Shown here piece after piece: positions 563 to 51,667 of a stretch of DNA of 64,000 nt; positions within the stretch are counted from its first letter, which is position 1, and each line of letters opens with the position of its first letter. The notes under the pieces were generated by a model. The model was given only the letters and a program-made list of their open reading frames with translations, was not told the origin of the DNA and did no database searches. The stretch is from positions 6,443 to 70,442 of the IMG/VR virus record IMGVR_UViG_3300037264_003124; one strand, given 5' to 3'. The translations under genes were made by a program, and so were the position numbers. This DNA comes from a virus.

Positions 563-591
563 TTGTGCACGTTGCCACACTTTGCTATACT
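563..591 (+). promoter_or_regulatory. Sigma70-like promoter
   Basis: TTGTGC (563-568), 17 bp spacer, TATACT (586-591), with an extended -10 TG. It points at the HNH gene. Confidence 0.55.
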
Positions 592-596
592 GTTCA

Positions 597-647
597 GGTG
601 GCTAGGGCGACGGCCCGAACTGCCGGCAACTCCACCGGCATGCCACC
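597..647 (+). ncRNA. Putative structured cis-RNA (three-way junction), copy 1
   Basis: GGTGGC-TA-GGGC(GACG)GCCC-GAAC-TGCCGG(8 nt)CCGGCA-T-GCCACC. Same architecture as 44018-44069. Confidence 0.5.
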
Positions 648-678
648 ACTTATCCTTGGAGGCATGAGGAGAGATGCA

Positions 679-1269
679 ATGGGAAAATTCAAGCACGGCT
701 GTAGTTATAATCCCACTCCGGAATATCGTGCATGGAGTGCAATGCTCAAGCGATGCTACTCTCCGAGCACTCAGTACTTCGAGCATTACGGAGGCCGCGG
801 TATCACCGCCTGCGACGAATGGCGAAGTGATTTTTCTCGATTCCTCGCTGACATGGGCGAACGACCTCCGGGAACTACCCTCGACCGGAAGGACAACGAC
901 AAGGGATATTGCAAGGAAAATTGCCGCTGGGCCACAAGACAAGAGCAAGGCCGCAATCGACGCACCAACGCTCTGCTTGTGTATCGCGGAGAAACGCGAT
1001 GTATTACGGAATGGGCGGAAGTTTGCGGCATCAGTGTTGAGATGCTGAGGACTAGACTCAAGCGTGGATGGAGTATCGAGGATGCCATAGCAAAACCCGT
1101 GCAGCAGCGACATGTGCTTTTTACCTGCTACGGCGAATCCAAGACTCTTGCTGATTGGGCTGATTTCTGCGGGCTGGCCCAAACCACGATTCAGGCACGA
1201 CTGATGCGAGGATGGAGCATCCAAAAAGCGATTGAACAACCAGCTCAGAAAAGAAGGACTACTCATTAG
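679..1269 (+). CDS. HNH-type (YGGRGI family) homing endonuclease-like protein
   Basis: YRAWSAMLKRC, YGGRGI, LDRKDNDKGYCKENCRWAT motifs; two C-terminal copies of a ~40-aa putative DNA-binding repeat (GE..C/L..WA...G.....RL.RGWSI). Confidence 0.8.
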   Translation: MGKFKHGCSYNPTPEYRAWSAMLKRCYSPSTQYFEHYGGRGITACDEWRSDFSRFLADMGERPPGTTLDRKDNDKGYCKENCRWATRQEQGRNRRTNALLVYRGETRCITEWAEVCGISVEMLRTRLKRGWSIEDAIAKPVQQRHVLFTCYGESKTLADWADFCGLAQTTIQARLMRGWSIQKAIEQPAQKRRTTH

Positions 1270-2329
1270 TATCCTCCTCGAAATTCGACAAGGATCTTGT
1301 CGGTCCATATAGCGTTCCGCATTTTTGAAACGCAAAACGCGAACGCGATCCAGTGAGTTTCACGTAATCCTTGAGAAACTGGCCGCCAATCCCATCGCAA
1401 TAATTCACGATTAGCTCCCCGGCCGCTTTATCCGTCGAGTGAATGTGAGCCAGCATTCCTCCGCGAAGCTTAGGCTCTGCATGAAAACTGCAAGCCTCGC
1501 AAATCACTCTCGAACCTGGAGCCACTTCCATCAGCGGATGCTCGCTCGTTAGTTGCCCGGCGTTCTGGCTCATCGAAACAAATCGGATTTGGCCGTACGT
1601 CTTCGGAGTCTTTTTGTCGACGAATTGGAGCCATTGCGTTCGTGTACCGTCGCCGTCAATTCGTAGAGACGAAAAATCGAAGCCACGCGTGTTGCTCGCG
1701 ACGTCACCCAGCCGCAGAAGCGTCTTGACCTCATACGTGCCGCCTCCGATAGCGGTCACATCTCCGCCTGCCTGTACATCGATGGCAATGGGGCTGTTCG
1801 CGAACTTTGGCCGCAAAAACAGATGCTCTAGCGATTGGCTGTTGACCGTCCGATAGCACGCTTCGCTTATGCCCTCGAAGTGGCAGTTATCCGACGTAAT
1901 GTTCGCGCACGTTTGCTCGCCATGCTCAGTCCCACATTGCACGCCGACCTTCATTCCCATGAAGCTGCAATCGCGGATGGCGATGTTGAGCGTCCCCCCA
2001 CTACCGTGCCGGAAGAGAATTCCATGATTGGCCAGCCCGACAAGATTGAGGCCATGAAGAACGAGGCACGTCGCGCCGCTGACCTCGATCATGGGCTTGT
2101 CGGCCGGCCCCTGCCATTCGAGGATAGTTCCCACCCGAACCGAATCCCAGCCCGGATTAGGCGAGCGATTGGGACCGCCCGCCCCGGCTAGGCGGAGTCC
2201 CATCGAACGCCCCACCCGCAACGTGTCTCGGATCACGTAGGTGTGCGGTTGCAGGCAGTCCGGCACACGATTGCCGGGCCGCCGCTCGGCATCGATCCAG
2301 CTCTGAAGTGCTTGGGTATCGTCTCTCAC
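1259..2329 (-). CDS. Pectate-lyase-like parallel beta-helix protein (putative depolymerase)
   Basis: N-terminal DDTQALQ motif; beta-helix-type repeats such as IRDCSF and SDNCHFE. Confidence 0.55.
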   Translation of the reverse strand: MRDDTQALQSWIDAERRPGNRVPDCLQPHTYVIRDTLRVGRSMGLRLAGAGGPNRSPNPGWDSVRVGTILEWQGPADKPMIEVSGATCLVLHGLNLVGLANHGILFRHGSGGTLNIAIRDCSFMGMKVGVQCGTEHGEQTCANITSDNCHFEGISEACYRTVNSQSLEHLFLRPKFANSPIAIDVQAGGDVTAIGGGTYEVKTLLRLGDVASNTRGFDFSSLRIDGDGTRTQWLQFVDKKTPKTYGQIRFVSMSQNAGQLTSEHPLMEVAPGSRVICEACSFHAEPKLRGGMLAHIHSTDKAAGELIVNYCDGIGGQFLKDYVKLTGSRSRFAFQKCGTLYGPTRSLSNFEEDTNE

Positions 2330-6032: not shown

Positions 6033-6505
6033 AGTTGGAACTTGCCTTTCTCGGCAGCTTCCAGGCGGTCGGCGAGCAAGCACATTGCCGATGCTATACG
6101 GTTAGAATTCAACAGGCTATGGAATCGCTTTAGCCAATCGTCCTTTACCTCCGCGTCCTTCTCCGCCGCGACTATCGGTGACTCGGCGCGGACGTAGCGG
6201 CCACAAGCACAATCAAAAGCCATTCCACTTCCATAATTAGGCACTCCCGATGATCTCATGGAAATGTTGAAGCATTTCCATTCCTCATTGTGGCTATCAA
6301 ATTGCCACCACCAGCCCTCCGTGTCCGGCAGCGGAAGCACCGTAGCCGGTTGGGAGCGGCGGGGAATATGAGCCTCAAACCGACTGCCGTCGAACCAAGT
6401 CGTGCCGCACTCGGCGCACTTCCGCAGTTCGCATGCTTGATGCAGCAGATGCAGCAGCAGCACTTCGTCGCATTTGCAGTTTGGACACTGGATCATCGCT
6501 CTCAC
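6029..6505 (-). CDS. Zinc-ribbon hypothetical protein
   Basis: CPNC...CAEC and LPDTEGWWW motifs. Confidence 0.55.
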   Translation of the reverse strand: MRAMIQCPNCKCDEVLLLHLLHQACELRKCAECGTTWFDGSRFEAHIPRRSQPATVLPLPDTEGWWWQFDSHNEEWKCFNISMRSSGVPNYGSGMAFDCACGRYVRAESPIVAAEKDAEVKDDWLKRFHSLLNSNRIASAMCLLADRLEAAEKGKFQL

Positions 6506-42922: not shown

Positions 42923-43969
42923 CTAAGAGGCAGCAGTGAACAGTACGCCGCTAGCTGGCGCGGCCAGTTGGTAGTCGATGACCTCCGTCACGCCCAAGAG
43001 CTGCCGCTTGTTGATGGCGTCGTTGACCGTCTCGACTCCCATCTCCAAGAATGCGAACCCTACGCACGTCGAGAAGTTGGGACCTACCGGGGCCTCCAGC
43101 CCACCGGGACGGGCGCACAAGAATGGCGTAGCCGTTGGCAAAATCTGGCTCCTCGCCGCGGCCGCTCCCTTGGCGGACGTAATCTTGCGGGTCCCTTCCA
43201 CTACGAGACTGAACCCGTACAGCTTGTCAGGCAAACCGTAGTCGGAATTCGGGTTAAACGCCTTGCCTTCGCCTTTGATGAAGTAGGGCGCCTCGGGAGA
43301 AGCCTTGATGTAGTCGACGATCTCTTGCGACAGGGCAATCTCGGCGGCCAGCTCGGAGTTGATGACCAGAATCAGCTCATCCATCTCGAGCGCGTCGAGC
43401 GTGTCGTCGCGGATGACTTCGGCCGCTCCAAAGAGGGACCTCTTGATGTCCTGCCGAGCCGTAGTTGACTGCACCCACGTCCCCTGATTCGTTCCCAGCG
43501 AGCTGGAGAACGTCGAGGCGTTGATGACGTGAGACGCCGCATAGTTGCCGGTCGTCGTGAGCTGCGTAATTGCAAGTTGCGTGCGAGCCGTCATCGCCTG
43601 CCGCGAGTAGATCGACAGATGTTGCTGAGACACGTCCCAATCGGCGTTGGAAATCGTCAGGTCTCCCAACGGCAGACCGTAGTAGTACCGCTCGCAACGG
43701 TAAGGGAAGAACTCGAACGACTCGCCACCCTCATTCCGCTCCGGTCGCGGCTGTCCGTCAGCCCACAGCTTGTCATCGAGAGTGGTTGAGAGGACTCGGC
43801 CCGCCTCCTCGATCGTCATCCGCTGATAGTAGTCGTTCAGCTTGGTGACGGGGACAGTCTGCGTGTAGCGGTTGACCGGGAACCGCTTGATGTTGCGGGC
43901 GAAGTCCACCACGAGCCCCTTGTGACTCGGCACGTGGACACTAAATGGTCCTGGATAAGCAGCAGCCAT
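42923..43969 (-). CDS. Major capsid protein (HK97 fold)
   Basis: 348 aa; located between the decoration and adaptor genes; ends LAAPASGVLFTAA. Confidence 0.75.
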   Translation of the reverse strand: MAAAYPGPFSVHVPSHKGLVVDFARNIKRFPVNRYTQTVPVTKLNDYYQRMTIEEAGRVLSTTLDDKLWADGQPRPERNEGGESFEFFPYRCERYYYGLPLGDLTISNADWDVSQQHLSIYSRQAMTARTQLAITQLTTTGNYAASHVINASTFSSSLGTNQGTWVQSTTARQDIKRSLFGAAEVIRDDTLDALEMDELILVINSELAAEIALSQEIVDYIKASPEAPYFIKGEGKAFNPNSDYGLPDKLYGFSLVVEGTRKITSAKGAAAARSQILPTATPFLCARPGGLEAPVGPNFSTCVGFAFLEMGVETVNDAINKRQLLGVTEVIDYQLAAPASGVLFTAAS

Positions 43970-44017
43970 GATCTTTCATCCTTCATGGCCCTCCGCGGCA
44001 GGCTCCCGCATGTGTCG

Positions 44018-44069
44018 CGACGGCGGTCGGCTGCGGTGGCCGATGCTTCGGGAGCTACCCTAGCCGTCG
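44018..44069 (-). ncRNA. Putative structured cis-RNA (three-way junction), copy 2
   Basis: CGACGGC-TA-GGG(TAGCT)CCC-GAAGCA-TCGGC(7 nt)GCCGA-CC-GCCGTCG, in the MCP leader. Confidence 0.5.
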
Positions 44070-44080
44070 TGTTTCAAAAA

Positions 44081-44491
44081 CTAGGCTGGCATCTTGGTGC
44101 CGATGTTGACTTGCACGAGACGCTTTTCGCCCGACGCAGCGCCTTCCTGGGCAATCCCTACGACGTTCTGCATCGTGGTGCCGCTGGTCGCAGCCTGTAC
44201 GCCCTTGCCGTCCGCATCGCTCTTGAGAAAGTCGCCAGCAACCCACGTCCCGCCCGCCTCCAAGAGACAGATATCTCCGTCGCCATGCAGGCGAATTACA
44301 TCATCTGTCTCGGCGTGGTTGTTCGTGGTGACGAGGTCGTTCAGCGGAGGATACTTGCCATCTTGCATCGAAATGCCGATGGCTTGTTCGTTCGCGTCAG
44401 CTTCAGCCCCCTTATGGTTGCCGGACATCTTAACGATGCGAGACGTGCGGATCGTCCCGCTGGCACGTAGGTTGGGAGTGGTGTTGGGCAT
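44081..44491 (-). CDS. Capsid decoration/cement protein (DUF2190-like)
   Basis: AIGIS, LEAGG...AGDFLKSDADGKGV, VGIAQEGAASGE. Confidence 0.8.
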   Translation of the reverse strand: MPNTTPNLRASGTIRTSRIVKMSGNHKGAEADANEQAIGISMQDGKYPPLNDLVTTNNHAETDDVIRLHGDGDICLLEAGGTWVAGDFLKSDADGKGVQAATSGTTMQNVVGIAQEGAASGEKRLVQVNIGTKMPA

Positions 44492-44525: not shown

Positions 44526-46727
44526 TTAAGCAGCCGCGCCGTTGGTGATCTTTTGCAACTCCTGTTCATACCAGCCAGTGGTATCCGTCGTTGGAGGTGC
44601 ATTTCGAGTGCGAGCCATGACGGCCTTGTACGCCCGGTCCTGATCTTCCTTGCTGTACTTCTCCGTCTCGCCACTCTTCGTGCCGGGCCGATGCCGTGAG
44701 TACCGCTCTACGCCTTCAACGTATGGCAAGTCGAGATTCAACGGAGCACGCGGCGTGTTTTCCAGAAGAGCGTCAACGAACCCGTCGAATTGCGAGTCGT
44801 CACGCATCTTGGAATAGCACAGCCGCTCCATCATCTTGTCCGGGTCGAGAACGTAGCCCTCATGATGGAGCTGCAACAGGCGAGCGCGGCGGTTGGCGTC
44901 GGTCTTCTCCTGATAGCGGGACTGCGACTCCGATTCGAGTTTCGCGACCCTGGCCTTTAGTGCGTCACGCTCGTACTTGAGCGTCTCGTTCTCTCCCGAT
45001 GATCTACTGTGTGCCATCTTTTCAGACTCCTTGCGTGGCGGGCCTCCTGTGCCTTCCTGGATCGTGTGCTCACTTCCCTTGACGCCTTCCGCCTCATTGG
45101 CTGTCTGGTCATAGGTGCCGGCCTCGGCGTCTGGCTGATCGTCGCCGTCGACGTGGCTTTCGGCGGCATAGCTCCGCTTCTTGCGGCCAGCCATGTACTG
45201 GGTCAGCTCCTCGTCCTCCATCGCGTCTAGCGCCGCGTAACAGGCTTTCTGATACGCCATATCCTTCTCCTTGTTCTTGTCAGGTGGTTCTTGAGGTGGG
45301 TCGCCGCCAGGCGCGTCAAGTCCTGGATCACCACCGGGTGCGCCAAGCCCACCGCCTTTCACTTGTGGCGGTGCCGGTGCAGTGGCCGCGGCTTGTGGAG
45401 GTGCCGCCGGCATCGCCCCCGCAGGTGGAATAGGATTCTCGGCTGGAGGCGGTGCGGCGGCGGCTACGGCGGGCGGTGGTGCGGCCCCTGGCGGTGCTCC
45501 CGCTGCTGGAGGTGCACCTGGAGCTACAGGCGTTGGCGGAGTTACCCCAGGCTGTTCAGCACCCTGCCCTTGCATCATCTGGGATTCCAGGAACTGCCAC
45601 TGCGGCAACTGCTGGATGGCGTCCACGATGCGGGCCAGGTCTTGGTCATCGAGCATCAGGTCGCCCTCCGCTTCGTAGTTTTCGGTGATTCCAAGTCCTG
45701 AATTGGCAATGGAAAGTCGCCTGAATTCCTGGTAGTACTCGTCAACGGAAGCTGCTGGCGGAACGCTTTTGGTAACATGTCCTAAAATCTCCACCTTCTG
45801 GGCAGGAGATTGGGAATCAAACCACTTTTCCGCCTGACCGGGAATTCTTCCGGTAGCCAATGCATGCTCTATCGCTTCAGACGCAGCTTTGAGACTGAAA
45901 GAGTCTTCTTGTGAAAGACCAAAGTCTCCGGGGTCTCTTGTCAGCGTCCTTAAAAAGGATTGTGTTTGTTGAGAACTGAGCTTCTTTTCTTTCCCGTTGG
46001 CCCATTCCTTCAAAATCGATACCAGCCACTTCCCTTTATCCGGGGATTTACCAATTGGTTTTTCTTTTGATGACGTGGACGCCCCGCACGTATTTCCTGC
46101 TTTGAATCCCCCATCTCCAGTCCCGCAGTTGTCTGCCGCGTAGTCTTTCTGTGGAATATGCACATTCCCCGGACCCTCGAAGACCGCCGCGTACTTCTCG
46201 ACCAGCTTGCCGGGGTGCACGCGCGAATAGACCAGCCCCATGTCCAGCCGCGGAACTTCCGCCCCCAATAATGCAATCGGGTCCAGGAACATCTCGTCGT
46301 AGGTATCCTCGACCCACAGTTCCGGGCTGCGGCGGGCAATGTACTTCTGCGCCTCTTCCCACTCTGAGCGGCGAACGTGAAAGTCGGCCGTGATGGCGTA
46401 CCGCTCTCGCCCCATCTCGCCCGACATTGACGCCACTCGAAAGGGACCGGCAAAACCGACCGCCTTCAATGGCGGCAGGCCGGAACCGGCCGGTGGCGTA
46501 TGGCCAATCGACAGGGCCGCATAGTCGCCCGTCTCGGCGATCCGGCGGTTGCAGCGATTGGCTACCGCCTCCAGCTCCGTCCGGCCGAACCTCAGAGTGC
46601 GACCGTCTTTGGTAGTCGTCTCGTGCTCCGCGAATACAGGCACGTCCCGAATCGACACGAACTGGTCCGGCGGAAACGGATTGCTGGCCGTTTGTGCGGG
46701 TTCGGTGGCGTTGGGAAATGCAACCAA
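44526..46727 (-). CDS. Mu-like prohead protease/scaffold polyprotein with an inserted domain
   Basis: IGHT, VGF, RRSPEL and IALLGAEVP protease motifs; Pro/Ala linker; coiled-coil scaffold at the C-terminus. Confidence 0.75.
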   Translation of the reverse strand: MVAFPNATEPAQTASNPFPPDQFVSIRDVPVFAEHETTTKDGRTLRFGRTELEAVANRCNRRIAETGDYAALSIGHTPPAGSGLPPLKAVGFAGPFRVASMSGEMGRERYAITADFHVRRSEWEEAQKYIARRSPELWVEDTYDEMFLDPIALLGAEVPRLDMGLVYSRVHPGKLVEKYAAVFEGPGNVHIPQKDYAADNCGTGDGGFKAGNTCGASTSSKEKPIGKSPDKGKWLVSILKEWANGKEKKLSSQQTQSFLRTLTRDPGDFGLSQEDSFSLKAASEAIEHALATGRIPGQAEKWFDSQSPAQKVEILGHVTKSVPPAASVDEYYQEFRRLSIANSGLGITENYEAEGDLMLDDQDLARIVDAIQQLPQWQFLESQMMQGQGAEQPGVTPPTPVAPGAPPAAGAPPGAAPPPAVAAAAPPPAENPIPPAGAMPAAPPQAAATAPAPPQVKGGGLGAPGGDPGLDAPGGDPPQEPPDKNKEKDMAYQKACYAALDAMEDEELTQYMAGRKKRSYAAESHVDGDDQPDAEAGTYDQTANEAEGVKGSEHTIQEGTGGPPRKESEKMAHSRSSGENETLKYERDALKARVAKLESESQSRYQEKTDANRRARLLQLHHEGYVLDPDKMMERLCYSKMRDDSQFDGFVDALLENTPRAPLNLDLPYVEGVERYSRHRPGTKSGETEKYSKEDQDRAYKAVMARTRNAPPTTDTTGWYEQELQKITNGAAA

Positions 46728-46792: not shown

Positions 46793-47014
46793 TCACGAAT
46801 CCACCACGCGGCTTTCAGTCCGCGTCTCGGTTGCAGGTTTGAACCGCGTGTAGTGGTCCCCGACCTGGCCGGATTCGAGCGGAACCGCAACAAAGAGGGT
46901 TCCGCTTAGCCCCTTGGACTCGGCTGAGTACAAGAGGTTTTTGAGGGTCTTCAGGCAAGCGTGTATCTGCTTGCCGTTGGACTCTCTTCCTGGATTCTTA
47001 GCATGTTGCGGCAT
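46793..47014 (-). CDS. Hypothetical protein
   Basis: Coupled small ORF. Confidence 0.4.
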   Translation of the reverse strand: MPQHAKNPGRESNGKQIHACLKTLKNLLYSAESKGLSGTLFVAVPLESGQVGDHYTRFKPATETRTESRVVDS

Positions 47015-47726
47015 GGCTGTCAACAGGTTTTGTACCGCTCTTCTTGACCCACCGTTCAAAACTGGCCTCCCCGTAGCGGCTGATCATCTCCCGCCGCTCC
47101 TCGTTCACGGCCTCGGAAATGGCGGGGTCTCGCATCTGGTGTTTGAACGCATGGCTATTGACGTGCTCGATCTTCACGTTGCCCGTCACGCCCACCTTGA
47201 ATCCGGCCTGATGGCAGCGAATCCAGTAATCCTGATCGCTGTACCGCCAATTTAGCGTTTCATCCCAGAGGCCAACTTTGTCGATGACGCGGCGCGGAAG
47301 ATAGAAACACGCCCCCCACGCCCGATCCTTGTGGATTCCGGGTCCGATATTCAGGTGGTTGTCGTCGCAGCACATGACGCCTCCGGCCATGTCGGCGTCG
47401 CGGACCAACGTATCGAGCCAGCCCTTGGGGACGACCGTGTCGCTGTTGAGCTGGACGACGTCACCTTGTACGAGATATAAACCTATATTGAATGCCTTCG
47501 TAAACCCAAGTGGTTTTACCGAGGCGTGAGATTGGGTGAAGAACGATACAAGGCGATCTGCCAAACGGCAGCGAAATTCTATGGGGTTGAATCCATTCGC
47601 CACCACCACCCGCTCGCCGAACTTGCACAGCCCATCCGCGTCCGCCTCCAAGCTGTCCAGGCAGCGGTGCACCACGGCCTCTCCGCCGGGCGGAACGTAG
47701 ATCGGCATGATGAGGCTAATGGTCAC
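46998..47726 (-). CDS. GT2 glycosyltransferase
   Basis: SLIMPIY, CLDSL, GFTKAFNIG, LNSDT, GLWDE....YSDQDY..R...AG. Confidence 0.9.
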   Translation of the reverse strand: MTISLIMPIYVPPGGEAVVHRCLDSLEADADGLCKFGERVVVANGFNPIEFRCRLADRLVSFFTQSHASVKPLGFTKAFNIGLYLVQGDVVQLNSDTVVPKGWLDTLVRDADMAGGVMCCDDNHLNIGPGIHKDRAWGACFYLPRRVIDKVGLWDETLNWRYSDQDYWIRCHQAGFKVGVTGNVKIEHVNSHAFKHQMRDPAISEAVNEERREMISRYGEASFERWVKKSGTKPVDSHAATC

Positions 47727-48571
47727 CCTTCGTCTCCAAAGAACCTCCCACTCGCCGCCAAGCTGCACCCCGTCGTCGATTCAAGCTGTTCCGTACCAGC
47801 CAAATCCCGAACGGACGTCTCAAAATCCACAGTCGTAGGGTAGTCCGAAAACTGGCACACCTGCCTATCAACTTCACCGCCCGCTCGCGGCACGTAGTCA
47901 ATCGGACAGTCGAACATCTCCGCCACTTCGCGGATACTGCGGCCGTGGCAAGATCCAATCTCGGTAATGCCATCCCGGTCAGCCGCTGCAACAATCGCCC
48001 GCACGGCGTCCGTGTAGTGGATAAAGTCCCGCACTTGGCTTCCATCGCCGGTGACAGTGATGCGGCCCTTGGTGCGTTTCTGGTCCATGAACGATGGGAT
48101 GACGTTGCCGCTGGATGGCTTGTGGCGGGGCGAGCCGTAGACGCAATGCAACCGGATAATCGAGGTTGATATTCCGAAATAGCTAGTGTAGTGTTCGCAG
48201 TACCGCTCCCCGGCGTATTTCTCGATGGCATAGGGGAGCGTTCTTGTGTAATGGACGATGGCCGAAGATACGAAGACCATCTTCGCCTTTCGCTCCTTGC
48301 AGAACTCCAGACATTCGACTGTCAGATTTGCGCCATTGTTCAAAGATTCTGCCGGATGCTCAGTAGCCTTTCGCACGCTTGCTTGCGCCGCTAAGTGAAA
48401 GACTACGTCGGATTCAATCTCCATGTCCACCGTCAGATTGGCGACATCCAAGCAGCGCACGCCGTGTTTGTGCAGAATGTCGACCGAGCATACATCATGC
48501 CCTTGCTCCACCAGCAGGTCGCAGACGTGGCTGCCAATGTGTCCGGCTCCGCCGGTGACGAGACACTTCAT
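47723..48571 (-). CDS. NAD-dependent epimerase/dehydratase (extended SDR)
   Basis: VTGGAGHIGS, VFHLAA, YAIEK (YxxxK), VYG, GDGSQVRDFIH. Confidence 0.92.
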   Translation of the reverse strand: MKCLVTGGAGHIGSHVCDLLVEQGHDVCSVDILHKHGVRCLDVANLTVDMEIESDVVFHLAAQASVRKATEHPAESLNNGANLTVECLEFCKERKAKMVFVSSAIVHYTRTLPYAIEKYAGERYCEHYTSYFGISTSIIRLHCVYGSPRHKPSSGNVIPSFMDQKRTKGRITVTGDGSQVRDFIHYTDAVRAIVAAADRDGITEIGSCHGRSIREVAEMFDCPIDYVPRAGGEVDRQVCQFSDYPTTVDFETSVRDLAGTEQLESTTGCSLAASGRFFGDEG

Positions 48572-48693
48572 AGGTCCAGCCAATCAGCCAATTCTGCGAG
48601 TACCAATGGTATTACACCGAATAGTACGAAGAAAAATCCGCACACCAACCCTAGCATCAAACACACTTGCCAGAATTCAATTAGAAAGCTCAT
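48568..48693 (-). CDS. Small membrane protein
   Basis: 41 aa, single hydrophobic helix, ATGA-coupled. Confidence 0.4.
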   Translation of the reverse strand: MSFLIEFWQVCLMLGLVCGFFFVLFGVIPLVLAELADWLDL

Positions 48694-49859
48694 GCGAAAA
48701 ACGGATGGACCCACTCGCCCACCCACTCCTTCTCCTTTTCCTGAATCGCTTCCATCACATTCCACGCCATCAGCACGAATACATCCGCCTCAATCTCTTC
48801 CCGCTTCCGTACAGGCAACTTGCTACCCGGTGCGTACTTGCCCTGCTTGGAAGGCATGTCGTCAATCAGGCACTCCATGAACTCGCCCGCCCCCGTGTAG
48901 TTTAGCATCGTGTTGCCCTTGGCCGGAGCACCGTAGCCCACGATCCGCTTCCCTTCGCCCTTCAAACGATCAAGTCGTCTTCGGAGTCGATTACGCTGGT
49001 CCTCAACTCGGCGAGTGACCTGCTTGTATTGCAGAGGGTGAGTGCGTCTCCGCTCAACGTCAATGTTCTTGTAGTAGTCGTGCTTGTCCGTTCGCTCTCG
49101 CCCCGCAAAGGCCCGCAGCGACGTGCCCTGAACGTCGTGCAACTGGACCTCGCTGATAAACAGTCCGTGCCGCTCGAACAGCGTCGACAACGCCGTGGTT
49201 CCAAACAAGGAAAGATGCTCGTGATAGACAGAATCATACCAGCCTCGCTCCCATAAGTCCTCGGCCCACGGTAGTTCGATGACGGCAATTCCATCGTCCG
49301 TCAGCAACAGCGACATGCCGGCCACGGCGTCATTCAAGTCCTCAATGTGAGCAAAGACGTTGTTGGCCAGAATCGCGTCCGCCCGGCCGTCTCGGGTTTC
49401 AATCTCCCTCGCCACCTGAAGTGACCACAACGCCCTTTGCGTCGGCACGCTCGCTGGAATGTTCTCTGCCGGGTCTATTCCAAGTACCGTGTGATTGCGG
49501 CAGGAGAAGTATTCGAGTAACAGGCCGTCATTTGACCCAATCTCGACAATCGAGACCATGCGACCCGTTGGCAATCGCCGCATCACGTCATCAGCGTACT
49601 TCCGCCAATGCTCGCCAAGCGTGGCAGCTCGTGACGAGTAGATGTAGTCGCTGAAGATTTCCTGGCGGTCCACGACAATCGATAGCTGCAAGTGAATGCA
49701 TGCCGCGCAGAGCATAAGCTCCAACGGATACACAGCCTCGTCTTGTTCGGGAGACGACAGGAACGAATTGGCGAGCGGCTGTTGGCCCAAGTCGAGGACC
49801 TTGGTCAATTCGGTCGAGCCGCAGATGCGACAGGCGGTGGAAGGGGTGAAGGGGATCAT
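48690..49859 (-). CDS. NDP-sugar C-methyltransferase
   Basis: CRICGS, LDLGQQPLANSF, EIGSNDG, YHEHLS, GYGAPAKGNT. Confidence 0.92.
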   Translation of the reverse strand: MIPFTPSTACRICGSTELTKVLDLGQQPLANSFLSSPEQDEAVYPLELMLCAACIHLQLSIVVDRQEIFSDYIYSSRAATLGEHWRKYADDVMRRLPTGRMVSIVEIGSNDGLLLEYFSCRNHTVLGIDPAENIPASVPTQRALWSLQVAREIETRDGRADAILANNVFAHIEDLNDAVAGMSLLLTDDGIAVIELPWAEDLWERGWYDSVYHEHLSLFGTTALSTLFERHGLFISEVQLHDVQGTSLRAFAGRERTDKHDYYKNIDVERRRTHPLQYKQVTRRVEDQRNRLRRRLDRLKGEGKRIVGYGAPAKGNTMLNYTGAGEFMECLIDDMPSKQGKYAPGSKLPVRKREEIEADVFVLMAWNVMEAIQEKEKEWVGEWVHPFFA

Positions 49860-51667
49860 GCGGTATCCCTAGCTGCGGCTTCTAATACTTTTTTGGCCTT
49901 GATATCACTCCGTGGATGTTCGTCCTCATTGAACGCTGCATACCTCTTGCCTGCAAACGCATCCCGCAGCCGCTTCGCAATCCCATTCTCCATCGCCCGC
50001 GGCGCATCCGACCCCAGCACAACACTCCTCTCGCTACGCTCACTCGGCGGACCGTCCGCGTCGTACTCAGCGTTCTCTGGCTGCGCCTCAAGGCCGTGCA
50101 CCATTGCGTTCTTTTCAGGACCACCTGAGTCACCGCCACCGAATCCACCGCCCATCGTTCCCGGCGGCGGCTGAATCGACTTCTGTAGCGCCGCCATGTC
50201 GAGCACCTCCGCGCCAGATTCTGGCACCGGAGTACCCAACAAATCCCGCACGTTTTGCGCATCGATCTTGAGGCCCATGTCGTAGGCCATCTTGATCGCA
50301 TTCAGCCGCGTCTCGGCGTCCGGCGTCTCAGTGTCAATTCGGAAACGGAACCTCGTGTTGGCGTACTGCGGATAATTGAACTGAATCATCGGCAGCAAAA
50401 GGTCCGTCGTAATCGTCTCTTCCAATAGCTGCGCATCGTACCGGACGATTTGCATGAACGTGCCAAGCTGCACCTCGGCCAGGTTGCTGCCGAGCCCCGT
50501 GGCGGACGCCTCGCTGGTAAGCGTTTGGCCCAAGATGTACCGCTTGATCTGGTGGCCGAAATACTCATTGATGACGGCCTTGAGAGACTCTGCGCCGCCC
50601 ATGCCAGGCTCGATATGCTCGACCCGATAGAGGGCCGATTGTTCATCCTGCACCATCGGGAAGAATACAATGTTTCGGCTGCCGCCCGATTCACTCTGCC
50701 GCAAAGCGGCCTTTTCGATTTCCTCTTTTGCCGTGGGGTTGTGCATCGGGTAGTACCAAACATTGAATCCGAACGCACTCCGCTCCAGGTACTCCATCAA
50801 GAGCGACAATGCCTCTTGCTTCTGAATCCACGTCCAATACAGCACACTCCGCAGGCCCTTGCCGTGAATGCGGCCCGCGTTAGTCGGCTCTTCATACTCG
50901 CCGTCCTCGATCTGGTTCTTGTGGATAGCCAGTAGCGGCCGCTCCCACGTGTCGAGAAAATACGCCAGCCCGTAGTCGGTCGGCTGGATCTTGCCCTTCA
51001 TTTGGCCGCGGATGATCGGCAATCCGTCGCCATTCTTGAATGTGGCGTCCTCTTCGTCCTCGCGCTGCCGCTCCCACCGCCTCGCGGAATTCTGCCAACC
51101 CGGATAGGCCATGCCGATGCGGATGCCGACCTGGTCCGGCCTGTACGTCCCCAGTCCGTCGTCATATCGAAAGACGATCTTGTCGCCGTTGACGGGAAGC
51201 CATTGGTCCATGACGATCCGCATCTTGGGACCAACCCGCTTCCACCGCCACTTGTGCTGGATGCCGTACTTGCCGTACCACGTCGCGTGCAACAGGTTCT
51301 CGCGGTATTGCAGGAAGCGGGGGATGTCTTCCAGCATCCGCGTCAACTCCGCAGCCACACCGACTTGTCCCTGGTCCTTTTTGTTCTCCGGCTCGACGTG
51401 CCACTCGAAGAGGCAGCAGGCCCGCTGCCGCATCTCGACGCACTCCATGATGGCCGTGTCGTTACGCATGATGCGGGCATTCTCAAACGATTGCTTGAGC
51501 GCCTCATCGGACGGCCGGTAGACGCGGGCAATCGACGAAACCGTGCCCTGAAACGTGATGGCATGCGGCAGGATGGACTCGCCCATGTTGATAGGCATGC
51601 GCGAGAGGCGTCCTGCCGGATCAAGCGTCGTGTCGTAAAGTGAGAATCCAGGTATCGGCATCTTCAA
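49856..51667 (-). CDS. Portal protein (Mu gp29/DUF935-like)
   Basis: LLHA.WYG, G.GL...LYW.W..K, ILGQTLTS, LAEV; located after the terminase. Confidence 0.85.
   Translation of the reverse strand: MKMPIPGFSLYDTTLDPAGRLSRMPINMGESILPHAITFQGTVSSIARVYRPSDEALKQSFENARIMRNDTAIMECVEMRQRACCLFEWHVEPENKKDQGQVGVAAELTRMLEDIPRFLQYRENLLHATWYGKYGIQHKWRWKRVGPKMRIVMDQWLPVNGDKIVFRYDDGLGTYRPDQVGIRIGMAYPGWQNSARRWERQREDEEDATFKNGDGLPIIRGQMKGKIQPTDYGLAYFLDTWERPLLAIHKNQIEDGEYEEPTNAGRIHGKGLRSVLYWTWIQKQEALSLLMEYLERSAFGFNVWYYPMHNPTAKEEIEKAALRQSESGGSRNIVFFPMVQDEQSALYRVEHIEPGMGGAESLKAVINEYFGHQIKRYILGQTLTSEASATGLGSNLAEVQLGTFMQIVRYDAQLLEETITTDLLLPMIQFNYPQYANTRFRFRIDTETPDAETRLNAIKMAYDMGLKIDAQNVRDLLGTPVPESGAEVLDMAALQKSIQPPPGTMGGGFGGGDSGGPEKNAMVHGLEAQPENAEYDADGPPSERSERSVVLGSDAPRAMENGIAKRLRDAFAGKRYAAFNEDEHPRSDIKAKKVLEAAARDTA

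Follow-up and report, generated by a model that had tools for sequence, protein, structure and literature searches.

What kind of RNA is the three-way junction that occurs twice in this virus, and what might it do at the two loci where it lies? The window, that is, the whole stretch of 64,000 nucleotides analysed here (positions 6,443 to 70,442 of the record IMGVR_UViG_3300037264_003124), carries one copy on each strand. The features of both loci are collected in Table 1.

Table 1. Positions of the two RNA elements and of the features around them in the window
Feature	Position	Strand	Basis or detail
Copy 1, three-way junction	597-647	+	RNAfold, Rfam, R2
Copy 1, helices	P1 597-602/642-647; P2 605-608/613-616; P3 621-626/635-640; P3 loop 627-634	+	P3 loop CAACUCCA
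Copy 1, promoter-like element	TTGTGC 563-568, 17-nt spacer, TATACT 586-591	+	sequence
Copy 1, site 1 (proximal 'decoy')	656-662	+	UUGGAGG; UGGAG 657-661 complementary to P3-loop CUCCA, duplex -8.3 kcal/mol
Copy 1, site 2 and ribosome-binding site	666-681	+	GAGGAG 666-671; GGAG 668-671 complementary to P3-loop CUCC; start codon AUG 679-681
HNH-type endonuclease gene, headed by copy 1	679-1269	+	PHROG 3377 'HNH endonuclease', E 3.2e-67
Copy 2, three-way junction	44018-44069	-	RNAfold, Rfam (sub-threshold), R2
Copy 2, helices	P1 44063-44069/44018-44024; P2 44058-44060/44050-44052; P3 44039-44043/44027-44031; P3 loop 44032-44038	-	P3 loop CACCGCA
Copy 2, site 1	44006-44010	-	UGCGG; complementary to P3-loop CCGCA, duplex -9.0 kcal/mol
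Copy 2, site 2	43984-43996	-	GCGG 43996-43993, running into GGAGGG 43994-43989, then AUG 43986-43984
Predicted hairpin over capsid start	43964-43990	-	arms GGCCAUGA / UCAUGGCU, loop AGGAUGAAAGA; folding prediction only
Major capsid protein gene (348 aa), downstream of copy 2	42923-43969	-	AlphaFold2 + Foldseek
Cement/scaffold-like gene, upstream of copy 2	44081-44491	-	Pfam Phage_cement_2 E 3.6e-4 (below cut-off); PHROG 673 'head scaffolding protein' E 3.2e-17

Family identity of the two copies

An earlier note on this DNA, made from the letters alone, had placed the junction at 597-647 (+) and 44069-44018 (-) and had described its junction letters as common to both copies. The coordinates are right, and GGCUAGGG and CCCGAA are indeed present in both; the pattern GGCTAGGGN{3,10}CCCGAA has two matches in the window, which are the two copies, and none in 100 dinucleotide-preserving shuffles. 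In copy 1, P1 (GGUGGC/GCCACC) is followed by UA as J1/2, P2 (GGGC-GACG-GCCC), GAAC as J2/3 and P3 (UGCCGG-CAACUCCA-CCGGCA), then U. The corresponding parts of copy 2 are CGACGGC/GCCGUCG, again UA, GGG-UAGCU-CCC, GAAGCA and UCGGC-CACCGCA-GCCGA, then CC. The sequences of P1 and P3 thus differ between the copies and are paired in both.

Folded in isolation with RNAfold, each copy adopts the three-way junction as its minimum-energy structure, copy 1 at -29.0 kcal/mol (z -4.07, with 0/200 shuffles as good) and copy 2 at -22.5 kcal/mol (z -1.53, 15/200). Judged by predicted folding energy alone, copy 2 is unexceptional. In a context of 141 nt, its predicted minimum-energy fold (-50.7 kcal/mol) is one without the junction, and imposing the junction costs 5.2 kcal/mol.

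The earlier note could assign the motif to no named family; cmscan, however, supplies one. Copy 1 matches int-alpA of Rfam (RF02996) with 39.7 bits, above the gathering score of 35.8 (E 1.1e-4 over the window), the match covering 595-662 (+) and positions 1-71 of the 71 of the model. Copy 2 scores 24.4 bits, under the cut-off, with E 0.0043 in a 301-nt search, and is not listed in the whole-window scan at gathering scores; int-alpA is its best family, aligned over the full length of the model. Both elements are probably RNAs of the int-alpA class, copy 2 being a sub-threshold member. In the model, P1, P2 and P3 have 8, 4 and 5 pairs respectively, and both copies align to all three helices. They also share with it the CUAG..CGAA letters and a 3' tail ending in GG. 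The consensus junction reads CUAG before P2, CGAA after P2 and CUG before P1'; the third of these strands departs from the consensus in both copies, copy 1 having AUG there and copy 2 CCG.

The name int-alpA refers to neighbouring integrase or alpA genes. Unlike the family's namesakes, neither copy lies beside a gene of these kinds, copy 1 being followed by an HNH endonuclease gene and copy 2 by a major capsid protein gene. The usual source credited for the family is reportedly a study by Weinberg and colleagues from 2017. In the main text of Weinberg et al. 2017 (PMC5737381) the term 'alpA' does not occur; the supplements of that paper may describe the motif, perhaps with a pseudoknot. No functional study of int-alpA was found in the literature searched.

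Within the window, a search with model R1 (filters off) gave no third copy, the next-best match scoring 12.2 bits, and the whole 70,442-base record holds no additional copies. Relatives were found in viral contigs. A second model, R2, was made from 51 leaders of other contigs with the rows of the window excluded; it recovers copy 1 at 37.2 bits and copy 2 at 37.7 bits, with the next match at 12.6, although much of the score of R1 and R2 derives from the junction pattern by which the leaders were picked.

Several other classes of RNA were considered and rejected. Self-cleaving ribozymes, such as the hammerhead, are absent from the whole-window cmscan at gathering scores, which lists int-alpA only; a relaxed scan around copy 2 lists none either, and J1/2 is only UA. 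ARAGORN finds 0 tRNA genes in the window. An intrinsic terminator would need a U-run directly behind its stem, and there is none behind either copy, the tails reading UAUCCUUG and ACACAUGC; nor is a terminator-like site present at either.

Covariation and the genes behind the leaders

The comparison set consists of leaders from at least 120 viral contigs that match the junction pattern of this window exactly; that the junction, P2 and inner P1 do not vary within the set therefore follows from the way it was picked. The P2 loops differ in length and sequence across the family. For covariation, 77 distinct rows from 81 matches in viral contigs were aligned. Helix cells are paired in 89.6% of cases versus 67.8% in shuffles, and the covariation score is 0.465 versus 0.108, a value that 0/500 shuffles reach. 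When the partner is slid by 1-3 columns, the score is at most 0.109. Two-sided changes occur in 4/4 P3 pairs and 5/8 P1 pairs. The compensatory character of P1 and P3, read by the earlier note from two copies, is thereby extended to the family, and its proposal of a conserved structured RNA holds, since homologous leaders with strong covariation in both helices exist.

A gene typically starts about 30 nt downstream of the motif, on the same strand. An open reading frame of at least 100 aa beginning at +12..+85 is found on the leader's strand in 56/69 cases, versus 11/73 in the opposite direction, in agreement with the sense of transcription that had been assumed for the two copies. The downstream genes are varied and include many replication initiators, as well as nucleases, integrases, a tail fibre and a capsid gene; integrase domains occur in 2/72 of the downstream proteins. 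The motif had been presented as a feature of two particular leaders, but it is a modular leader: at least 120 viral contigs carry it, and the genes behind it are many and unrelated. Neither is it a fixed companion of the HNH family seen here, a possibility ruled out by the search of 80 of the 351 loci of HNH relatives, none of which holds the motif (model R1, E<=0.1, default filters); 20 such loci compared with Rfam gave no int-alpA at E<=1.

Copy 1 is a canonical unit, in which a promoter-like box is followed by the leader and then by a free-standing HNH endonuclease gene. The earlier note had put the beginning of copy 1 at about the predicted start site of a sigma70 promoter. A TATACT box does end 5 nt ahead of the copy, but a strict promoter scan lists no promoter there (hexamer matches of 3/6 and 5/6), and for this reason the predicted transcription start after the box is only plausible. 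Among sequencing runs, one DNA run, probably that of the source sample, contains the region, and no RNA run does. The HNH gene behind copy 1 is 679-1269; frame 674-1048, which overlaps it, is a shadow frame and has 0 Pfam and 0 PHROG matches. In the map of open reading frames, the gene is the sole plus-strand gene between minus-strand neighbours, one starting at 501 and the other spanning 1259-2329. The latter has no relative among viral contigs, so that the flank offers no proof of insertion.

The P3 loop and its two downstream sites

The predicted pairing of the P3 loop with two downstream sites is the most informative feature of the element and was missed in the earlier note. Among 73 leaders, the best ungapped complement of the loop in the proximal stretch (site 1) scores 5.41, versus 3.39 +/- 0.12 after swapping of loops among leaders; the complement in the region -20..-3 before the start (site 2) of the same leader scores 5.24, versus 3.96 +/- 0.10. 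These swaps, which leave the relatedness among leaders in place, reach neither value in 500 trials, and the two-site complementarity persists in 51 dissimilar clusters of leaders, which contain 57 distinct loops (0/1000 swaps). Both sites score at least 4 in 40/51 clusters, and 89% of the loop bases are common to both, which makes the two pairings mutually exclusive.

The geometry of the family places site 1 at a median of +6 and the start codon at a median of +33 (inter-quartile range 30-36). Site 1 is the stronger in 38/73 leaders, site 2 in 26, and the two are equal in 9. Site 2 overlaps an SD-like 4-mer in 35/46 clusters; in the remaining 11/46 it lies beside the Shine-Dalgarno sequence rather than on it, and activation is therefore as possible as repression. 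Both copies in the window have both sites at the family positions, with short predicted pairings of 5 and 4 bp in each. In copy 1, site 1 sits 6 nt past the model end, exactly the family median, site 2 has an anti-SD duplex of -9.4 kcal/mol, and the HNH start codon lies 29 nt past the model end, at index 28 when counted from 0.

The possibility that the decoy serves as a standby Shine-Dalgarno sequence was rejected for the family, since the anti-SD energy of site 1 is -2.1 kcal/mol, versus -1.9 for coding sequence and -6.6 for the ribosome-binding window. The copy 1 decoy nonetheless reads UUGGAGG.

The reading towards which we lean, with modest preference, is that int-alpA elements are cis-acting 5' leaders that tune the start of translation through exclusive pairings of the P3 loop. 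It builds on the observed family match, structure, covariation, two-site complementarity and gene orientation; which way the effect goes, what tips the balance, and whether the capsid gene is affected at all are what we infer. The three-way junction (P1-UA-P2-GAA..-P3-..-P1') would position the variable P3 hairpin beside the emerging mRNA, where its loop could pair with one of two sites and never with both. One would be the proximal 'decoy', about 6 nt after P1', and the other would coincide with the Shine-Dalgarno sequence or immediately precede it, some 8 nt ahead of the start codon. The balance between these two predicted pseudoknots would then set how frequently ribosomes start, and the element might act as a translational throttle or switch. 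A family already catalogued in Rfam would thus gain, from its anatomy, a concrete functional hypothesis. A conserved scaffold with a variable loop matched to both a decoy and the ribosome-binding site might be the one portable module by which phages and mobile islands adjust output, for genes that could include replication initiators, selfish nucleases and others.

Two alternatives to a cis-acting RNA leader were considered. In the Rfam entry, int-alpA is typed as 'Gene; sRNA', by which the copies would be small RNAs acting in trans and possibly ended by P1 and a U-run. In the family at large, U makes up 48% of the linker that follows P1', and 20/73 leaders have a UUUU run within 10 nt, which speaks for this reading; in the two window copies, however, P1' is followed by no U-run and adjoined by no terminator-like site. 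The co-oriented genes and the fit of each loop to its own downstream sites, not to a common target, argue against it further. The trans-acting reading is very unlikely, and the anatomy described here points to a cis leader. Still less credible, to the point of being extremely unlikely, is a signal at the level of DNA, for instance a site of recombination or homing, or a direct-repeat operator. It would suit a motif that moves between unrelated genes and is followed by two similar short repeats, but it does not explain why P1 and P3 stay paired, by Watson-Crick or G-U pairs, through two-sided changes, why the repeats covary with the hairpin loop, or why the orientation relative to the gene is fixed.

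A -10-like hexamer ends 0-3 nt ahead of model position 1 in 37/75 leaders, versus roughly 1-2 for each offset elsewhere. About half of the set thus start directly after a box of this kind, and in these leaders the 5' end of the RNA would be buried in P1; in the favoured reading this could be an added property of the element wherever an RNA begins at its own promoter. An element that is nothing but a 5' stabiliser or processing signal, protecting the mRNA from decay at its 5' end or at an RNase-made end within the late operon, would draw on the same observation and on the position of copy 2 right ahead of the gene for the late protein in greatest demand. It leaves unexplained both the fixed distance to the start codon and the covariation of the P3 loop with two sites, one of them at the ribosome-binding site, and is unlikely.

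A further possibility is that the junction is a sensor, either a riboswitch-like aptamer or a protein-binding site; a small molecule, or a factor of host or phage, would bind there and choose between the decoy and the ribosome-binding site for the P3 loop. In the Rfam consensus, whose construction did not involve this window, the junction letters CUAG, CGAAAAG and CCUG stand in upper case as conserved; P1 and P3 vary freely. Two exclusive pairings of similar strength constitute the anatomy of an expression platform, and an autonomous throttle would need one pairing only. Conserved junction and exclusive pairings are thus both present when the element is compared with riboswitches, but such anatomy needs no ligand. 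Riboswitches are recognised also by genes tied to one metabolite or pathway; the genes here are heterogeneous and metabolically incoherent, from replication initiators, nucleases and integrases to tail fibre and capsid. No result points to a ligand or protein, the P2 loops vary, and geometry alone can account for the conserved junction letters. We give the sensor a low probability. If it were true, int-alpA would be a portable and programmable translation switch, attachable to any gene by matching about 6 loop bases.

Known leaders resemble the tuning of translation start proposed here in part. At the start of lambda cIII (Lambda_thermo in Rfam), the mRNA has two exclusive folds, one hiding and one exposing the ribosome-binding site. 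This too is a phage leader with exclusive folds, but it has no three-way junction, no pairing of a loop with a decoy and no family match. In phage T4, homing endonuclease genes such as that of I-TevI carry hairpins that sequester the ribosome-binding site and keep output low; these hairpins are simple, and their effect depends on the promoter of the transcript. The likeness lies in a selfish phage nuclease gene placed under an RNA structure at its ribosome-binding site, while the element here is a modular three-way junction with a matched loop that also heads genes other than nucleases.

Copy 2 at the capsid locus

Within the late operon, copy 2 occupies a gap of 111 nt, with the cement/scaffold-like gene on one side and the capsid gene on the other; the earlier note had placed it in this gap, as lying between decoration and major capsid protein genes. 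The 348-aa product of the downstream gene has no Pfam or PHROG match, and a search by fold was needed because its profile gave 0 matches against PDB sequences. Its AlphaFold2 model (pLDDT 77.6) retrieves HK97-fold phage capsids from the PDB with Foldseek (E 6e-12 to 1e-7; for example 8vb0, 2.8e-11), and by this modelled structure the protein is confirmed as an HK97-fold major capsid protein. The motif is absent from 17/17 loci that encode relatives of the capsid protein (42-57% identity). With 0/17 of these loci holding it, the leader as a conserved part of the capsid module is rejected, and any role of copy 2 in capsid expression is not conserved. A complete leader before a core structural gene is what this window adds to the family, and it may represent either fresh recruitment of the module to a new gene or the footprint of a lost cassette.

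The canonical start position of the family is occupied in copy 2 by AUG 43986, and it is this codon, not the ribosome-binding site of the capsid gene, that site 2 serves. AUG 43986 opens a frame of 49 codons that overlaps the capsid gene out of frame, 17 nt ahead of the capsid start. Copy 2 would therefore act on capsid translation indirectly, or it is what a lost cassette has left behind. For indirect action, the complete leader within the late operon would work through the 49-codon frame and a predicted hairpin holding both AUGs: its loop, AGGAUGAAAGA, contains the SD-like AGGA of the capsid gene, and its arms contain the upstream AUG and the capsid AUG (43969-43967).

A comparable arrangement is known from the repY/repZ leader of IncI/IncB plasmids (PK-repZ in Rfam), in which a hairpin loop pairs just upstream of the ribosome-binding site of the replication initiator. 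In those plasmids the main start is hidden in a structure, which is opened by way of a short reading frame upstream; the pseudoknot is an activator of translation, and an antisense RNA blocks it. Many int-alpA members head replication initiators, and in copy 2 another AUG precedes the main one, which a predicted hairpin covers; the repY/repZ leader differs in lacking the three-way junction, the decoy and any sequence similarity (cmscan lists int-alpA only in the window). By analogy, a sensor-gated junction might have been recruited as copy 2 to gate capsid synthesis through the frame of AUG 43986 and the start-hiding hairpin, which we regard as improbable.

The alternative that concerns copy 2 alone is that it is the functionless leftover of a leader-plus-gene cassette, such as that of a homing endonuclease, whose coding part has been lost. 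This reading is compatible with the family model; it is possible, although we rate it clearly below the cis-acting tuning of translation start proposed for the family. A leftover would fit the absence of the motif from the relative loci, where the gap ahead of the capsid gene is 7 to 144 nt in 16 of the 17, the short out-of-frame reading frame at the canonical start, and the retention by the capsid gene of an SD-like AGGA and start of its own, 17 nt beyond AUG 43986. Leaders of this type, moreover, head mobile nuclease genes elsewhere and in this phage. Against it, no trace of a lost coding sequence is found, the two AUGs being only 17 nt apart, and all three helices of copy 2 are intact together with both sites complementary to its loop, unlike old debris free of selection. 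Structural genes are headed by int-alpA leaders elsewhere too, a tail fibre gene in one case (leader L058) and a terminase large subunit in 1/72 of the downstream proteins.

Two additional members of the int-alpA family

The window, bases 6443-70442 of a 70,442-base IMG/VR virus record, was scanned in full with cmscan against Rfam 15 at gathering scores, a check proposed in an earlier note. A single family was returned, int-alpA (RF02996). The match lies at 595-662 (+), corresponds to copy 1 of the three-way junction RNA and spans the full model, with a score of 39.7 bits (cut-off 35.8). For copy 2, a relaxed scan of 301 nt again gave int-alpA as the best family over the full model length, below the cut-off (24.4 bits, E 0.0043). 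No other Rfam family reached its gathering score in the whole window, and a tRNA search of the window found none. The view of the earlier note that no named family can be assigned therefore fails for copy 1, and for copy 2 it is doubtful. The observation of two copies in that note is real, with both elements at the coordinates it gave; the family had already been catalogued, and both copies are new members of int-alpA (see the table).

Coordinates and composition of the two leaders and of genes discussed in the text
Feature	Position	Strand	Description
Copy 1	597-647	+	P1 GGUGGC, UA, P2 GGGC-GACG-GCCC, GAAC, P3 UGCCGG-CAACUCCA-CCGGCA, U, P1' GCCACC
Copy 2	44069-44018	-	P1 CGACGGC, UA, P2 GGG-UAGCU-CCC, GAAGCA, P3 UCGGC-CACCGCA-GCCGA, CC, P1' GCCGUCG
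HNH endonuclease gene	679-1269	+	PHROG 3377 'HNH endonuclease', E 3.2e-67
C-methyltransferase	within 46998-49859	-	Methyltransf_14/13, E 1e-30
Nucleotide-sugar epimerase	within 46998-49859	-	PHROG 540, E 5e-50
Glycosyltransferase, weak match	within 46998-49859	-	

The int-alpA motif is reportedly credited, as a rule, to Weinberg et al. 2017. No functional study of it was found in the literature searched by 'int-alpA' and 'RF02996', and the latter term had no occurrence. One paper names 'int-alpA' only in a list of Rfam matches from E. coli genomes, and in another the same words denote a gene order. A term search showed that 'alpA' is absent from the main text of PMC5737381, the supplements of which may hold a description.

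The identical junction bases described previously were confirmed: the pattern GGCTAGGGN{3,10}CCCGAA, common to both copies, has 2 matches in 64 kb and none in 100 shuffles. The three-way junction is the minimum-energy structure of each isolated copy. The fold of copy 1 beats its shuffles (z -4.07; 0/200 as good); that of copy 2 is not clearly better (z -1.53; 15/200 as good).

The exact junction pattern is present in at least 120 viral contigs. When the whole records of 47 of the 120 listed loci were scanned with the Rfam int-alpA model, 32 matched at E<=0.01 and 23 were above the cut-off; some carry two or three copies. Among 114 pattern instances with enough flank, the minimum-energy fold was the three-way junction in 61, of which 6 were removed by eye as mis-folded and the other 55 were aligned to build covariance model R1. 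With filters off, R1 found just the two copies in the window (42.2 and 41.3 bits; next match 12.2), and no third copy anywhere in the whole 70,442-base record. Because both window rows were in the R1 seed, a second model, R2, was built from 51 leaders of other contigs. It gave 37.7 bits for copy 2 and 37.2 for copy 1 (next match 12.6), much of the score of either model being supplied by the window's junction pattern, by which all seeds were chosen. By construction, too, the junction, P2 and inner P1 are invariant.

Searched over the window and 99 of the 120 listed loci, R1 gave 81 matches at E<=0.001, from which 77 distinct rows were aligned. In this pattern-picked set, 89.6% of cells were paired, versus 67.8% in shuffles, and the covariation score was 0.465 versus 0.108, a value reached by 0/500 shuffles. 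Sliding the partner by 1-3 columns gave at most 0.109. Two-sided changes were observed in 4/4 P3 pairs and 5/8 P1 pairs, so that the compensatory stems noted earlier hold across the family. In 25-29 of the 77 rows, the three outermost pairs of P1 do not form; thus, only the inner 4-5 pairs of P1 are firm.

A conserved stretch, GGCTAGGGGGCAGTTCCCGAA, also matches the junction pattern; the bases after it are CAATCC in contig loci L037, L049 (second match), L078 and L085, and TAATCC in L097. All five stretches have no R1 score and look like chance matches, not RNA motifs.

Anatomy of the leader and a proposed role in translation start

In the leaders inspected, the P3 loop has two complements downstream, one a few bases beyond P1' (site 1) and the other just ahead of the start codon (site 2), a feature absent from the earlier note. 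Complementarity was scored as the best ungapped complement, with 1 for a Watson-Crick pair and 0.5 for G-U. The 81 matches were reduced to 76 without duplicates or rows with <70 nt downstream, and 3 of these were dropped for having no loop, no usable start or no ORF of >=40 aa, leaving 73; the loop of copy 2 was set by hand from its isolated minimum-energy fold. The proximal stretch scored 5.41 versus 3.39 +/- 0.12 with loops swapped among leaders (maximum 3.74), and the -20..-3 window before the start scored 5.24 versus 3.96 +/- 0.10 (maximum 4.25; 500 swaps in each case). After the leaders were collapsed to 51 dissimilar clusters with 57 distinct loops, the values were 5.20 versus 3.34 and 5.18 versus 3.87, respectively, and 0/1000 swaps reached either. 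Both sites scored >=4 in 40/51 clusters. In those 40, 89% of the loop bases used are common to both sites, and sites 1 and 2 therefore exclude each other.

The geometry is regular: site 1 starts a median of 6 nt past the model end (n=73), the median position of the start codon is +33 (inter-quartile range 30-36), and a median of 8 nt separates site 2 from the start codon. An SD-like 4-mer is present in 46 clusters and overlaps site 2 in 35 of them. Mean anti-SD duplex energy is -6.6 kcal/mol in the ribosome-binding window; site 1, at -2.1 kcal/mol, is near the coding sequence (-1.9) and was ruled out as SD-like. The linker after P1' is 48% U and 5% G, with a UUUU run in only 20/73 leaders. Which site is stronger varies (site 1 in 38/73 leaders, site 2 in 26, equal in 9).

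Of 69 leaders with enough flank, 56 are followed by a same-strand ORF of >=100 aa whose start lies at +12..+85, and in the opposite direction such an ORF was found in 11/73; this points to a cis leader rather than a free gene. In 37/75 leaders, the end of a -10-like hexamer falls 0-3 nt before model position 1; the peak, 17 leaders, is at 2 nt, and offsets outside this range have about 1-2 each. Thus, about half of the leaders would start at or inside P1.

The family match, the helices, their covariation, the two exclusive complementary sites, the fixed geometry and the orientation are shown by the analysis. The best-supported reading of the int-alpA element is a cis-acting leader setting translation start. 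The conserved junction would present a gene-specific P3 loop, which would take either the decoy (site 1) or the ribosome-binding site (site 2), and this choice would set how often translation starts. Formation of the pairings in the cell, the direction in which they act, and what shifts the balance between the sites are points we infer. Where site 2 covers the SD, repression is the likelier outcome; activation is possible instead, as in the repZ pseudoknot, which activates translation. The anatomy of int-alpA lends itself to a sharp and cheap experimental test of function.

The downstream ORFs of 72/74 leaders were scanned, with the near-duplicates L073 and L098 omitted. DUF1376 and 'primosomal'/replication-initiation families each match 8-11 of these ORFs, several HNH families 3-6 each, and primase/polymerase families 4-5; terminase large subunit, holin, Dam and KilA-N occur once each. 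The name int-alpA refers to an integrase/alpA gene context, and integrase domains were found in 2/72 ORFs. A separate scan of ten gave a tail fibre (L058), an integrase (L044) and a helicase loader (L091). Within this pattern-picked set, replication-initiation genes form the largest cargo class, a finding new to the current work, as is the absence of the leader from the relatives searched of both cargo genes of the window.

Copy 1 and the HNH gene

The gene behind copy 1 is an HNH endonuclease gene, as had been noted. The frame 674-1048 (+), 124 aa from AUG 674, was rejected as the HNH gene; it is a shadow frame with no Pfam or PHROG match. AUG 664 is in frame with the HNH start AUG 679, 5 codons upstream. 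The HNH gene is the sole + strand gene between - strand neighbours, as expected for a free-standing inserted nuclease gene. Its 3' end overlaps that of a convergent 356-aa gene, 1259-2329 (-), by 11 nt (1259-1269), and the HNH gene and the copy 1 leader would both be crossed in antisense by transcripts of the - strand genes.

At the sigma70 promoter proposed earlier, promoter-like boxes are present: TATACT at 586-591, with TTGTGC 17 nt upstream, fits a start near 597-598, the first base of P1. A strict promoter scan lists nothing before copy 1, so the predicted start rests on the family-level -10 enrichment. RNA beginning at 597 has the junction as its predicted minimum-energy fold (-37.1 kcal/mol). 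The loop CAACUCCA is complementary to UGGAG 657-661 (site 1, +6) and to GGAG 668-671 (site 2), which is part of GAGGAG and 7 nt upstream of AUG 679. With the promoter-like box, the fold, both sites and the HNH gene, copy 1 is therefore a canonical unit.

Among 80 HNH relatives kept of 351 found, no locus carried the motif (R1, E<=0.1, default filters), and 20 loci scanned with Rfam had no int-alpA at E<=1; on these loci, the leader is not a fixed partner of this HNH family. A SymR-antitoxin-like match (RF01809, 41.4 bits, below its cut-off of 61) lies just upstream of one HNH relative in another viral contig, at 1412-1485 (-) of locus L197.

Copy 2 and the capsid gene

The 348-aa protein downstream of copy 2 has no Pfam, PHROG or PDB-sequence match. 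Its AlphaFold2 model (pLDDT 77.6, pTM 0.76) matches HK97-fold capsid proteins (3bjq at 6e-12; PhiM1 capsid 8vb0 at 2.8e-11), and the designation as a major-capsid leader is therefore right. No promoter-like or terminator-like site was found in the copy 2 gap; copy 2 would therefore belong to a predicted late polycistronic RNA.

The loop CACCGCA is complementary to UGCGG 44010-44006 (-), at +5, and to GCGG 43996-43993 (-), which is followed by GGAGGG and AUG 43986. This AUG, +32 after P1', occupies the canonical start position of the family and opens a 49-codon frame only, out of frame with the capsid gene, whose AUG (43969) is 17 nt downstream. The window thus adds an int-alpA leader in a capsid-gene context with an out-of-frame canonical start. 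A predicted hairpin of 8 pairs, GGCCAUGA/UCAUGGCU at 43964-43990 (-), places the two AUGs in opposite arms and the capsid SD-like AGGA inside its 11-nt loop. After copy 1 there is a weaker predicted analogue, GCAU/AUGC with GAGGAGAG in the loop. In the minimum-energy fold of a 141-nt context (-50.7 kcal/mol), the 3' half of P2 pairs with the site 1 region; with the junction forced, the energy is -45.5, or 5.2 kcal/mol worse. The site 1 region CGGGAGC (44003-44009) is complementary to the P2 3' half GCUCCCG (44049-44055) (-), which gives this alternative fold; it may be a chance match or a third state.

The motif was not found at 17 capsid-relative loci (42-57% identity; filters off, E<=1; one locus without upstream sequence), the three weak matches all lying elsewhere in the loci. 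The gap ahead of the relatives is 7 to 144 nt in the 16 of 17 loci measured. With the motif absent from these relatives and the leader complete, copy 2 is therefore a leader acquired by this lineage. Two readings of it remain: the footprint of a lost cassette, or a recruited element acting on capsid translation via the short frame and the predicted hairpin.

Three sugar-modification-type genes (see the table) occupy 46998-49859 (-), with the portal gene (49856-51667) on one side and the head genes on the other. A 733-aa ORF at 44526-46727 (-), in the head module between the sugar genes and a cement-like gene, has no Pfam or PHROG match.

One group of leaders (L013, L036, L050, L070, L098 and L107), which heads 'PKNWAVFQHYK'-type proteins, has a 5' flank and outer P1 (..UUUGAAACAC-GGCUAGGGUAGCUCCCGAA) similar to the bases just before copy 2, UUUUUGAAACAC at 44070-44080 (-). 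This likeness of sequence may hint at the origin of copy 2.
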